Positions 43,732 to 46,785 of a stretch of DNA of 64,000 bases are shown one piece after another. Source of the DNA: a virus (lineage: Duplodnaviria; Caudoviricetes); IMG/VR virus record IMGVR_UViG_3300030098_005649. One strand, 5' to 3'. The notes under the pieces are model-generated. The model saw nothing but the letters and a program-made list of their open reading frames with translations, made no database searches and was not told where the DNA came from. Made by a program: the position numbers and the translations under genes. How positions within the stretch are numbered: the first letter of the stretch is position 1; every line of letters begins with the position of its first letter.

Positions 43732-44370
43732 ATGTTCAAAAACATAATGAAAAAACTGAAGAGTAGGAGAGGAAACTCACTTGCTGAATTCGCAGTTACA
43801 ACCGCTATGATGGCTACATTAGCCACAACTGCAGCTCCCAAGTTTGGGCAAATTGGTGCAGGTGCAAAAGAGAAAAAGACTATCGCTAATATCGATAAAA
43901 TTGTAACGGTTGCTAATAATTTTTATAACCAAACATTATCCGAAGAGGGTAAGGGAAGATTTCCTGGACAATCTAAATACGACCAACCAGTTGGTGGTGT
44001 TTCATTATCTGAAGGACAACTTACTGATGAAGCCTTAGAGATATATGTTGAAACTATTCTTGATGCTAAAGACAATTACGAATCAGACTTAGGTGAGTTT
44101 GTTTATGTATTTTCAACTGCATCTGATGACGATGATGCCTTACAAGGTAATTGGATGAATGATGAAACATCTGTAGCATTTGATGTAGATGGTGCATTAG
44201 ATTTCAAATCAGACTTTGGTAACAATGGTATATCATCCCCATTTCAGGATGGTTCATATGCATACTTGGTAATACCAGGTAGTGGTTCAGGTACAGATGC
44301 TCAAGCACCTGCACTTATCGTAATAGATACTGAGAACCCTGCAGAACTAAATAAAACTTTAGTACCATAA
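43732..44370 (+). CDS. Type IV pilin-like protein 1
   Basis: Class III signal peptide KSRRG|NSLAE with E5 and hydrophobic helix; GGAG RBS. Confidence 0.75.
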   Translation: MFKNIMKKLKSRRGNSLAEFAVTTAMMATLATTAAPKFGQIGAGAKEKKTIANIDKIVTVANNFYNQTLSEEGKGRFPGQSKYDQPVGGVSLSEGQLTDEALEIYVETILDAKDNYESDLGEFVYVFSTASDDDDALQGNWMNDETSVAFDVDGALDFKSDFGNNGISSPFQDGSYAYLVIPGSGSGTDAQAPALIVIDTENPAELNKTLVP

Positions 44371-44412
44371 ATAAAAAAACAGAACGAAAGACTCGTTCAG
44401 AAAGAGAACAAA

Positions 44413-44862
44413 ATGAAGAAACTAAAAAACAAAAACGGATTCACTCTTATTGAGTTGATAATGGTTATGATAATATTAGGAGTATTATCAGCAGTTGCCA
44501 TACCGAGATACTTGGATACCATCGAAAAGGCAGAAGAAGCTGCTGAAGATGCAGTTATAAGTAATATCGGTGTCGCTCTTGACAACTATGCTATCCATAA
44601 GTTGGTAGATAGTGGTAGAGGAATATGGCCAGACAATCCATTTGATGCACTAAAAGACAAACCACAAACTTATACTACTGACGGTACAAATGCCGACACA
44701 GATAATGAGTGGACATTTGTAGATGGTGACCCAGCATACATTACCCATCAAAGGTCTGATAACACCAGATGGAAGTGGGAGTATGATGCAGGAATAAACA
44801 CAGGAACAGATTCAGATACTACTGGTACATTAGGCAGTAGAGAAAGTCTGTCAAGTGAATAA
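44413..44862 (+). CDS. Type IV pilin 2
   Basis: KNG|FTLIELIMVMIILGVLSAVAIP. Confidence 0.92.
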   Translation: MKKLKNKNGFTLIELIMVMIILGVLSAVAIPRYLDTIEKAEEAAEDAVISNIGVALDNYAIHKLVDSGRGIWPDNPFDALKDKPQTYTTDGTNADTDNEWTFVDGDPAYITHQRSDNTRWKWEYDAGINTGTDSDTTGTLGSRESLSSE

Positions 44863-45325
44863 TAAGAACGGGTTTACTTTAGTGGAACTCATTATGGTGA
44901 TGGTAATTGTGGGAATACTCGCAGCAGTATCTATACCACGATTTGCTGATATTGTAAGACAATCCGAGGCCGCAGCAGAACAAGGAATCCTTGTGAATTT
45001 AGTCGCGGCCTTAGATACTTATAGTCAAGAACAATTCATTGAAGAGGGTGTGGTTAGTTGGCCAGACAATCCATTTGATGCCTTGAATAAAGTACCACCA
45101 TCATATGATAAAACACAATCTACTTTGATGACTCAGATGAAAGATAGTGATTGGATTTATACAGGTCAGGCAAGTAATGATTATAAAAATTCAATCGTAC
45201 ACAGACGAAAAGAAGATAGTTTAGCAATTTGGACTTATGATAAAACAACAGGTGAGATAGGATATTCCAATCCACCTTACAAACCAAATCAAGTCGTATA
45301 CAGACCTGATTTACAAGGACAATAA
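44855..45325 (+). CDS. Type IV pilin 3
   Basis: GTG start; KNG|FTLVELIMVMVIVGILAAVSIP. Confidence 0.92.
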   Translation: MNNKNGFTLVELIMVMVIVGILAAVSIPRFADIVRQSEAAAEQGILVNLVAALDTYSQEQFIEEGVVSWPDNPFDALNKVPPSYDKTQSTLMTQMKDSDWIYTGQASNDYKNSIVHRRKEDSLAIWTYDKTTGEIGYSNPPYKPNQVVYRPDLQGQ

Positions 45326-45332
45326 AAATCGA

Positions 45333-45776
45333 ATGAAAAAACTACTGAAAGAAAAAATGAATGAAGGTTTTTCGTTGGTAGAATTAGTAATGGTTATGGT
45401 CATCTTAGGAATATTATCTGCAGTTGCAGTACCTAAGATGTCCGCCGTTCTAAACAGAGCAACTGTTAGAGCTGAAAAGGCAGTGGTAGACCAAGTATGG
45501 GCAGGTGCCGAACAATATGCTGGTGACAAACTTTTAGAAGTAGGAACAGAATCTTGGCCTTATAATCCTCTATCAACTTTTGGTAGAACTCGTAATATGA
45601 ATATAAATTTAGTATTAGGTATACCTGACGAGGATGACGAATGGCAGTATAACATCGAAAGTGATGGTGAGGGTAGAGTATATCATTTTAGAATTGATGA
45701 TGAGATATGGTATTACACATATGATTCTACAACATTTCAATTAGCAGAAGAACCAGTGAGGTATATAGCACAATAA
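45333..45776 (+). CDS. Type IV pilin 4
   Basis: NEG|FSLVELVMVMVILGILSAVAVP. Confidence 0.92.
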   Translation: MKKLLKEKMNEGFSLVELVMVMVILGILSAVAVPKMSAVLNRATVRAEKAVVDQVWAGAEQYAGDKLLEVGTESWPYNPLSTFGRTRNMNINLVLGIPDEDDEWQYNIESDGEGRVYHFRIDDEIWYYTYDSTTFQLAEEPVRYIAQ

Positions 45777-46201
45777 TGGATGATAAAATAAAAGAACTAC
45801 TATTATACTTTGGTATATTTGGATGTATAATGTTTGTATTACTAAGACCAGATCCAGATGAAATACCAAAAGTAAAACCACCATCAATGGAATACTTTGA
45901 TGAAACACCAATTGTTGCTTGGAGAGCATATGATAGAAAAGGTGGACCTTGTATAAAGGTTAGGTACAAGGTACAACGAGATAAAACAAGATTGTATATG
46001 TTTGCTGAAAATGGAAAGTTGGTACATCAAACACCATTAGCATTAGATAGATTCAAAGATGGTAGAGAAAGAACAGAAACATATGTTTGGAAACTTTACA
46101 GAACTGAATGGACATCTGATATAAATCCTGGATACTACACAATCGTAGTTGGAACAGACCACGACAAAAGAGGCATAGGTACAGAGATAGAAGTATTATG
46201 A
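45776..46201 (+). CDS. Membrane-anchored protein with FlgD-Ig-like domain
   Basis: N-terminal TM; LYMFAENGKLVH...YVW...INPGYYTIVV pattern. Confidence 0.5.
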   Translation: MDDKIKELLLYFGIFGCIMFVLLRPDPDEIPKVKPPSMEYFDETPIVAWRAYDRKGGPCIKVRYKVQRDKTRLYMFAENGKLVHQTPLALDRFKDGRERTETYVWKLYRTEWTSDINPGYYTIVVGTDHDKRGIGTEIEVL

Positions 46202-46785
46202 AGTACCTAGCACTTTTATTATTACTAAGTGTTACATATTCTCAAGATATCCAACAAGTATCGGAAACAAAAAGAAGTAGTGTATACGGACAAGATTGTG
46301 ATGATACGGAATATAGAAATTCCAATGGTACACCCAATTGGAAAAACTATGGACAATGGTTATCCGAATGTGATTCAATCCAAACAGTAACCTTAGATAT
46401 AGAATTTGCCGAAAGACGAAAGAAACAACAAAGAGAACAAGCCATACAAGATAGTATTGAATTATCAGAAGTAGAAGATATAGATTTTGATTTAGATGCT
46501 ATGTGGGAAAATACAGTATGGGAAGAAATACAAGATGTCACTACGGTGTATGCAGAAGTAGAACAAATAACTGCAGTTGCTGGTGTTCGTGGAGCTGAAG
46601 CAGAAGATGAAGCATTAGCTCTTTTATATTATAGAAAATCAATGAAAGGATTATCAGAATTAGACCTACAAAAAGCCTTGGGTAAACTTATAATAAAAAG
46701 AGGCAACCTTTCTGATGATGACCCACAGGCTATAAAAATAGATTCTTACATAAAACAAATAAAATCGAAGTTAGAGAAAGTATAA
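46198..46785 (+). CDS. Secreted acidic protein, last gene of the pilin operon
   Basis: Signal peptide MKYLALLLLLSVTYS; TAVAGVRGAEAE motif. Confidence 0.6.
   Translation: MKYLALLLLLSVTYSQDIQQVSETKRSSVYGQDCDDTEYRNSNGTPNWKNYGQWLSECDSIQTVTLDIEFAERRKKQQREQAIQDSIELSEVEDIDFDLDAMWENTVWEEIQDVTTVYAEVEQITAVAGVRGAEAEDEALALLYYRKSMKGLSELDLQKALGKLIIKRGNLSDDDPQAIKIDSYIKQIKSKLEKV

Follow-up and report, generated by a model that had tools for sequence, protein, structure and literature searches.

A six-gene operon of host-derived type IV pilus subunits in large T4-like marine phages

Introduction

How can a phage make use of type IV pilus subunits when the machinery that would assemble them is not found beside their genes? 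The question is raised by a 64,000-nucleotide stretch of the viral record IMGVR_UViG_3300030098_005649 (Duplodnaviria; Caudoviricetes), referred to here as the window, which carries on its plus strand a compact run of six open reading frames (ORFs), O1 to O6, at positions 43732-46785. A sequence-only reading of this DNA had described four tandem prepilins, followed by a translationally coupled membrane protein with an immunoglobulin (Ig)-like domain (O5) and a secreted acidic protein (O6), and we confirmed all six ORFs, their class assignments and their positions.

Virus-encoded pilins are already known. In phages of Pseudomonas and Xylella, a prophage FimU (P-FimU) and PilA-like proteins are known that the host's own machine incorporates; P-FimU blocks pilus-binding phages, and some of the PilA-like genes occur in virulent phages (Sztanko et al., Cell Rep 2026, PMC12952977). 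In the SNJ2 provirus of the haloarchaeon Natrinema, PilA1 and PilA2 exploit the secretion machinery of the host and form the predominant filaments on its surface, with consequences for other viruses as well as for the behaviour of the host (Xiang et al., Cell Rep 2025, PMC12426801). What is new in the present case is a six-gene operon together with a host control region. That these are phage-borne, host-derived filament subunits dependent on the PilD, ATPase, platform and secretin of the host is well supported, and the operon probably depends on the host's sigma-54 and activator as well. That the pilins of this T4-like phage operon are assembled by the host machine for replacement of the pilus surface is the reading we prefer, with a probability of roughly one half.

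Four prepilins and no assembly machinery

The claim that all four prepilins have intact class III cleavage sites holds in its essentials, in that each has a basic leader ending in Gly and a Glu at position +5, but not in full, as O1 has no standard GFxxxE motif. O2, O3 and O4 are classic prepilins, with a short leader, the motif GF(T/S)L(I/V)E and about 20 hydrophobic residues; they score 33.2, 34.7 and 27.4 bits, respectively, against the N_methyl family PF07963 (cut-off 21.2), pass NCBIfam TIGR02532 and also match PHROG 3433, annotated as 'pilin'. For O1, which aligns with O2-O4 at 20-25% identity, we searched the Pfam, PHROG and NCBIfam models, PF07963 and TIGR02532 included, and none matched. 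The GspG equivalog TIGR01710 (cut-off 88.85 bits) also left O1 unmatched, and gave O2-O4 scores of 32-44 bits, from the N-terminal helix only. The predicted cleavage site of O1, RRG/NSLAEF, combines the basic leader and Glu at +5 with a following hydrophobic helix, and has Asn at +1 instead of Phe or Met.

The AlphaFold2 (AF2) model of O1 (predicted local distance difference test, pLDDT, 68) shows a kinked N-terminal helix and an alpha/beta head. Its best neighbours in AFDB are GspG-type pilins (E 1e-10 to 1e-14, 28-34% identity) that bear an automatic GspG-C-terminal-domain label, and in a structural scan of the whole PDB 19 of the 20 top matches were pilins or pseudopilins (Z 4-5.8); a Foldseek search of the model against the PDB returned nothing under E 0.9. 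A Tad/Flp TadE-like identity, considered for the G-xSLAEF motif, was rejected on the lack of a PF07811 match (Pfam E<=1) and because the host orthologues sit in an operon with PilB, PilC and a secretin, not in a Tad locus.

The statement that prepilin peptidase, ATPase, platform protein and secretin are missing from the window agrees with our searches, which found none there or in six related phage contigs. No ORF of the window has more than four predicted transmembrane (TM) segments, so the prepilin peptidase and the platform protein do not lie within it. The six contigs (109-132 kb, 59-72% complete) include G001, the nearest of the records compared, which is 97% identical across the operon; in them nothing scored above cut-off for PF01478 (Peptidase_A24), PF00437, PF00482 (T2SSF) or PF00263 (secretin), and the T2SSE matches were sub-threshold P-loop hits of about 15 bits on AAA+ ORFs of 382-417 amino acids (aa). 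At this degree of completeness, absence of the machinery from the whole genomes is likely, though unproven. The conclusion that the subunits must use a host machine is supported, and the likely machine is the complete sigma-54-controlled type IV filament operon of Marinimicrobia described below.

Table 1. Features of the pilin operon and its control region (positions in the window)
Feature	Positions	Strand	Description	Basis
Upstream activator-like element	43533..43570	+	TGTAACA at 43533-43539, TGTATCA at 43550-43556	
Palindrome	43559-43570	+	TTGTTATAACAA	Part of the upstream activator-like element
Sigma-54-type -24/-12 box	43667..43681	+	TGGTAC-N5-TTGT, C of the -12 element replaced by T	
O1	43732..44370	+	Atypical prepilin, 212 aa; leader ends RRG, mature N-terminus NSLAEF	
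Hairpin, short	44382..44398	+	In the O1-O2 spacer; T-run absent on the plus strand	Inverted repeat
O2	44413..44862	+	Type IV prepilin, 149 aa; leader ends KNG, mature FTLIEL	PF07963, TIGR02532
O3	44855..45325	+	Type IV prepilin, 156 aa; GTG start, overlaps O2 by 8 nt	PF07963
O4	45333..45776	+	Type IV prepilin, 147 aa	PF07963; phage-only clade; synteny
O5	45776..46201	+	Bitopic membrane protein, 141 aa; periplasmic Ig-like sandwich	AF2 model, pLDDT 88.6
O6	46198..46785	+	Secreted acidic protein, 195 aa	Sec-type signal peptide; mature isoelectric point 4.4

Cellular relatives of the phage pilins

Among 185,579 species genomes, relatives of O1 (35-50% identity) were found almost only in metagenome-assembled genomes (MAGs) and single-amplified genomes (SAGs) of Marinimicrobia/Neomarinimicrobiota (SAR406, Fidelibacterota), including on contigs of 220 and 583 kb. 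In the SAG AM-382-M06 (locus L090), the gene order begins with a response regulator, PilD and a T2SSE ATPase with an MshEN domain, continues with an activator (L090:7126-8583) carrying Sigma54_activat and HTH_8 domains, a T2SSF platform protein and the O1-like and O2-like genes, followed by four ORFs in the minor-pilin position, three of which match N_methyl, and ends with a 550-aa protein, two small ORFs, an AAA_22 protein, PilO, a T2SSB-like protein and a secretin. The other host genomes have two to five tandem O1-like copies. At +1 the host orthologues carry Gln or Asn, and O1 belongs to a Marinimicrobia-specific pilin family with these residues at that position; its N-terminal ~90 residues hardly differ from those of the host. 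Maximum-likelihood analysis groups every phage O1 sequence with the host copy immediately ahead of the O2-like gene (support 100/99); those of two phage loci (L083 and L084) adjoin the gene of the SAG, and most others lie on a long branch. O1 is the orthologue of the Marinimicrobia pilin gene next after that for the platform protein, and probably the main filament subunit.

The nearest cellular relatives of O2 and O3 likewise lie with the Marinimicrobia operon. O2 is 43-64% identical to host pilins and is sister to the pilins of the host arrays in L110 and L117 (Shimodaira-Hasegawa-like approximate likelihood ratio test, SH-aLRT, 98), and the sister of O3 is the host pair L117_12108/L110_16480 (SH-aLRT 99). 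The O4 clade, with an SH-aLRT of 100, contains phage pilins only, and O4 is the sole pilin of the minimal cassettes. The host sisters of O1, O2 and O3 and the phage-only clade of O4 together point to an old O1 and O4 core to which later captures were added. Given that O1 and the C-terminal half of O6 (see below) were captured independently from one phylum, whose control region is also shared, Marinimicrobia is the probable host, and the phage probably infects members of this phylum. In an earlier study, only a podovirus and a 6-kb myovirus fragment had been linked to SAR406, through single cells (PMC4611503). A Marinimicrobia SAG (L125) and a Crocinitomicaceae MAG (L126) were considered as evidence of an infected cell and rejected, since their likeness to O1 is confined to the N-terminal pilin segment.

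The host arrays are of interest in themselves: at L110:11600-20100 and L117:11600-15600, two O1-like genes are followed by about 10-18 tandem divergent pilin genes of the O2/O3 type, an unusually large repertoire for small genomes.

The control region

Sigma-54-type boxes like the one ahead of O1 (Table 1) have four matches in the window against 1.0 expected. Of 56 distinct phage loci, 49 have the box ahead of O1, two of them (L014 and L057) in its canonical form. On the host side, 60 of the 70 O1-like genes have a TGG[CT]A[CT]-N5-TTG[CT] box, mostly the canonical TGGCAC-N5-TTGC, about 30-90 nt upstream, and tandem O1-like copies have one box each. The upstream activator-like element lies ~100-135 nt ahead of the -24 box. 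Heptamers of the TGTTACA type occur 2.55 times per phage O1 promoter (-220 to -60) compared with 0.15 in control windows, and 1.38 times per host O1 promoter compared with 0.11; for a motif set picked after looking at the sequences, this amounts to a 12- to 17-fold enrichment of TGTWACA, 100-200 nt upstream, in phage and host.

RpoN was found in all five host genomes; in the phage contigs neither RpoN nor a true sigma-54 activator was found. With both host factors on the cellular side and none in the phage, the operon is apparently under the control of the host's pilin switch. In the phage box, the T of the -12 element might relax the requirement for an activator. We considered the AAA+ protein of the phage (51676-52920) as a sigma-54 activator and rejected it, as it scores 63 bits against AAA_5 (MoxR-type) versus 27 against Sigma54_activat, lacks a GAFTGA loop and has a vWA protein as its partner. 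The sequence TATATAGGTA, downstream of the -12 box, was similarly dismissed as a general phage promoter because it is not enriched in the window. A second intergenic copy of the box, TGGTAT-N5-TTGT at 56014-56028 (plus strand), stands just before the ORF at 56039-56572, and the phage may place further genes under the same host switch.

Conservation across marine T4-like phages

A scan of IMG/VR returned 201 stretches encoding O1 relatives, from which 80 loci were kept (50-99% identity). Nearly all kept loci that extend beyond O1 carry O1, one to three N_methyl pilins and O5/O6 (sometimes in the order O6-O5), and the minimal cassette is O1, one O4-type pilin, O5 and O6. The module is present in about 70 independent marine viral contigs from many samples, its flanking genes vary, and the gene for the T4 capsid protein Gp23 was found on four of the long cassette contigs (E 1e-76). 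Rather than a one-off moron, the cassette is a module conserved throughout the lineage, and its carriers are large T4-like marine phages of a widespread lineage, presumably lytic. In marine metagenomes, a profile search yielded over 3,600 homologues of O1, all of them unnamed, and neither blastn of the region nor tblastn of O1 had any match among 50,697 phage records.

For all six genes, pairwise ratios of nonsynonymous to synonymous substitution rates (dN/dS) were between 0.04 and 0.42, with 0.06-0.20 for O1, about 0.05 for O2 and about 0.1 for O3, and synonymous sites were near saturation; the genes are therefore old, functional and under purifying selection. The sequence-only reading had allowed that the region might be a chimeric host insert or might not be expressed. 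The first of these is excluded by the conserved cassette and the selection acting on it, the copies being spread over independent viral contigs, and the sequence of the stretch itself is recovered elsewhere, in that 14 DNA runs from five studies contain 89-95% of its sampled words.

Transcription in the sea

Lack of expression, the other possibility, is contradicted by metatranscriptomes. Six runs from four studies contain 45-75% of the stretch's sampled words, and we placed RNA contigs from four of these, one per study, on positions 38000-52000 of the window. The contigs cover 43712-46520 and almost nothing of the flanking ~11 kb of this 14-kb stretch, with a depth that declines from O1/O2 to O6, and a single RNA contig of 1,958 nt (4 mismatches) runs from O1 to O4. 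They begin at 43712-43770, just past the -24/-12 box, the earliest 5' ends being 20-80 nt after the start predicted near 43690-43695. The uncovered flanks make uniform DNA contamination an unlikely source, since contamination would have covered them as well. The operon is strongly transcribed in the sea, be it during infection or not, and is the dominant transcript of the region, its flanks being nearly silent.

The accessory proteins O5 and O6

Neither O5 nor O6 matched a family in Pfam, PHROG or NCBIfam, and O6 had no usable match in the ESM Atlas. The AF2 model of O5 consists of one TM helix and a seven-strand Ig-like sandwich, akin to the Ig folds of FlgD and of C-terminal domains (CTD) of the type IX secretion system (T9SS). 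Relatives of O5 number only 67 representatives among 1.84 billion proteins, about 50-210 aa long and many of them fragments, save for a few weak matches in giant repeat proteins. The five host genomes contain no homologue of O5, and an ORF of the same size in the host operon was rejected as a relative (hhalign probability 0.95%). O5 is specific to the phage lineage.

O6 has a phage-specific N-terminal domain with two Cys residues and a helical, tetratricopeptide repeat (TPR)-like C-terminal half. Positions 93-200 of its alignment profile match a secreted protein of about 150 aa in all five Marinimicrobia genomes (E 1e-37 to 1e-43), which belongs to a family assigned to Fidelibacterota by the Atlas. 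O6 is thus a chimera, with a C-terminal half derived from the host and an N-terminal domain of the phage's own. One host relative of this half (46470-46785) is a 150-aa protein at L127:1444-1896, which adjoins a TPR protein and weakly resembles the TPR part of T9SS PorW/SprE, below threshold (E 7e-6). In four of the five genomes, 20-30 kb of the same contig separate the O6-like gene from the pilus locus.

Operon layout and neighbouring genes

Apart from the 8-nt overlap of O2 and O3, the ORFs overlap by 1 nt at O4/O5 and by 4 nt at O5/O6. The hairpin between O1 and O2 (Table 1) is possibly an element of mRNA stability or attenuation, and a terminator scan found none on the plus strand, either within the operon or after it. 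The window is low in GC, and nearly all of its genes are on the plus strand, as is typical of a large phage.

About 2.2 kb upstream of the operon are genes for tRNA-Ala(TGC) and tRNA-Cys(GCA) (41340-41489), and further upstream is a 216-aa protein with three TM helices (39838-40488), homologues of which occur a few kb from the cassette in three related loci (L016, L034 and L040). Directly after O6 comes an HNH endonuclease gene (46816-47322; PHROG 11604, E 3e-34; compare L007:11063-11557), which at this position is missing from nearly all related contigs. G001 has an additional 164-aa ORF that separates the HNH gene from O6, and its O6 shares only 79% identity; the region after O6 looks like a local hot spot of recombination. 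Positions 48705-52920 encode the vWA protein (720 aa) and the MoxR/CbbQ-type AAA+ protein (414 aa) mentioned above. The vWA protein recurs close to the cassette in several related contigs, and the AAA+ protein is 51-55% identical to gene products of Microcystis phage Mel-JY01 and of a 484-kb uncultured phage.

Much of the remaining window (1-25600 and 57964-61956) is a very large sugar-modification island, with several GT1/GT2 glycosyltransferases, a DegT aminotransferase, a C-methyltransferase and a 1330-aa fusion of GT2, GT1 and FkbM-methyltransferase domains. In the host locus L093, a PglL/TfpO-like O-oligosaccharyltransferase (Wzy_C, Wzy_C_2, PglL_A) adjoins the O1 pilin array. A link between the sugar island of the phage and pilin glycosylation is conceivable.

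Discussion

A course of events consistent with these results would begin with host RNA polymerase carrying sigma-54, which, driven by a host activator of PilR type bound to the TGTWACA repeats, would transcribe the operon from the retained -24/-12 promoter. The four prepilins would enter the inner membrane, host PilD would cleave them after the leader Gly, and the host's MshE-type ATPase, PilC platform and secretin would polymerise them, so that infected cells would display filaments in which phage-type O1, orthologous to the main and hypervariable host pilin, would be joined by O2-O4; O5 and O6 would act as envelope accessory factors. With rising numbers of genome copies, a shared promoter and the same N-terminal helix, the phage pilins could outcompete those of the host with no dedicated shut-off. 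On the replaced pilus surface, pilus-binding phages, the phage's own progeny included, would fail to adsorb to the infected cell. This exclusion of superinfection and self-adsorption, by masking of the receptor, is our leading guess at the benefit, and is ranked first because pili are common receptors, because the host pilins are expanded and hypervariable, and because of the precedents of P-FimU and SNJ2. Both phage exclusion and a PilS-type feedback, which the sequence-only reading had put forward along with altered adhesion, are plausible given the shared promoter and the nearly identical N-terminal helix.

Like the pilins of those precedents, the genes lie on a viral genome, are homologous to host pilins, and come with no machinery that could be found (in contigs 59-72% complete, the host being deduced). 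P-FimU and P-PilA are likewise viral homologues of host type IV pilus subunits whose own machinery is absent, but each of them is a lone gene for a minor pilin or a PilA copy, and their products are highly diverse and share about 50% identity with the host protein, whereas the cassette comprises four pilins and two accessory genes in one operon, is conserved across a large marine T4-like lineage and retains the host's sigma-54 promoter and upstream repeats; its host is uncultured, and it is known from sequence. SNJ2 shares the tandem arrangement of virus-encoded pilins (two in SNJ2), but belongs to the temperate pleolipoviruses of archaea and encodes archaeal pilins, in contrast to the type IVa-like pilins and accessory proteins of a bacterial T4-like phage. 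N_methyl prepilins are also known in marine T4-like phages, as the 'pilin' genes of cyanophages (Synechococcus phages ACG-2014f and S-CAM7; PHROG 3433); these resemble ours only in the N-terminal 40-60 residues, and are single genes with no partners of the O1, O5 or O6 type in phages of another host phylum. The Marinimicrobia pilus operon (for example L090) has in common with the cassette an O1-like gene followed by an O2-like gene, the -24/-12 promoter and the TGTWACA repeats, but has PilD, ATPase, activator, platform, four minor pilins, PilO and secretin, none of which the phage carries, while the phage cassette adds O5 and the chimeric O6. As to the MSHA system (msh genes of Vibrio and Shewanella), the likeness is that of the host machine only, in the MshEN ATPase, the AAA_22 protein (MshM/ExeA-like) and tandem prepilins in one locus; O1, with Gln or Asn at +1 in its family, matched no curated pilin model, and pilin orthology is not established.

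Several points weigh against surface replacement by a host-built pilus. The T that replaces C in the -12 element of most phage copies makes the use of sigma-54 uncertain, even with spacing and GG kept. Processing by PilD, filament assembly and any effect on adsorption are, like sigma-54 dependence and the benefit itself, deductions, and the link to the host is one of homology. The RNA evidence consists of assembled contigs rather than raw reads, which renders transcript ends and levels approximate. The roles of O5 and O6 are conjectural, and a complex prediction for O5 (28-141) with O6 (17-195) scored 0.00, which is evidence neither way. The O1 locus of the host has no PilT-size ATPase, one being found beside a second, larger ATPase elsewhere in four of the five host genomes; if the filaments do not retract, they are possibly poor phage receptors. 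O1 is strongly conserved among the phages, while exclusion factors such as P-FimU are highly diverse, and a six-gene cassette seems costly for simple exclusion. Conserved copies accompanied by phage-specific accessory genes fit a role in binding or behaviour about as well.

Such a role would be that of an appendage directed by the virus, an adhesive or drag-increasing pilus built by the host, with O5 and O6 as accessory or adhesin components, by which infected cells would stick to particles or to neighbouring host cells, or would remain suspended, raising transmission in the dilute ocean. We regard it as possible, if unlikely. O1, O4, O5 and O6 form phage-specific conserved lineages under purifying selection, which fits binding better than an arms race, and the operon is the dominant transcript of its region; the viral pili of SNJ2 promote biofilm formation and motility (PMC12426801), and pili keep marine cyanobacteria suspended (PMC7994388). 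Set against this, no adhesin-like domain was detected, O5 having a generic, membrane-anchored Ig fold, aggregation would follow by analogy, and a lytic phage would profit only within its latent period. A narrower form, in which a phage-specific pilus (O1 and O4 with O5/O6), made through the host's pilin switch, tethers infected SAR406 cells to particles or uninfected hosts, is more tentative still; if true, the tethering pilus would be a transmission strategy of a large phage, its burst being released beside new hosts in the dilute deep ocean.

Another alternative is that the products act as a regulatory or dominant-negative decoy, triggering a PilS-type shut-off of the host pilin genes or jamming the machine so that pili are lost. 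PilS of P. aeruginosa reportedly senses the pilin N-terminus (Kilmury and Burrows 2016). It is the N-terminal ~90 residues of O1 that are almost host-identical, and the promoter architecture is common to phage and host. A decoy function of this kind has been suggested for truncated PilA copies of phages (PMC12952977). The decoy is nonetheless doubtful, as the full-length globular domains of all four pilins, needless for this purpose, are under strong purifying selection, and as feedback would silence the phage's own promoter too. That a conserved and highly expressed module of a T4-like genome might instead supply a virion part or a factor for phage assembly or egress, unrelated to host pili, is very improbable when class III signal peptides and TM helices direct its products to the membrane and periplasm rather than to cytoplasmic virion assembly, when its nearest relatives are pilins within a host pilus operon, and when its promoter is of the host-pilin and not the phage late type. 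The chance that host DNA was misjoined into a viral contig is negligible: the cassette has a slightly higher GC content (0.35-0.36, against ~0.33 for the window) and its genes are clearly host-derived, but the phage copies form clades of their own and recur on the many independent contigs with variable phage flanks, some with Gp23, and in the DNA runs of five studies. Replacement of the pilus surface stays our preferred account.

For the biology of these phages and their hosts, the operon provides a concrete host assignment, at the strength given above, for abundant, globally distributed large T4-like marine phages, SAR406 being a major uncultured phylum of the deep ocean. It indicates that viruses can capture pilus subunits as an entire operon, complete with its enhancer-dependent promoter, long kept and strongly transcribed, and it makes nameable O1, O5 and O6, until now unannotated families with thousands of metagenomic copies. 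Together with the hypervariable pilin arrays of the host, of up to ~18 tandem genes, the phage operon points to the pilus as a main interface between SAR406 and its viruses.

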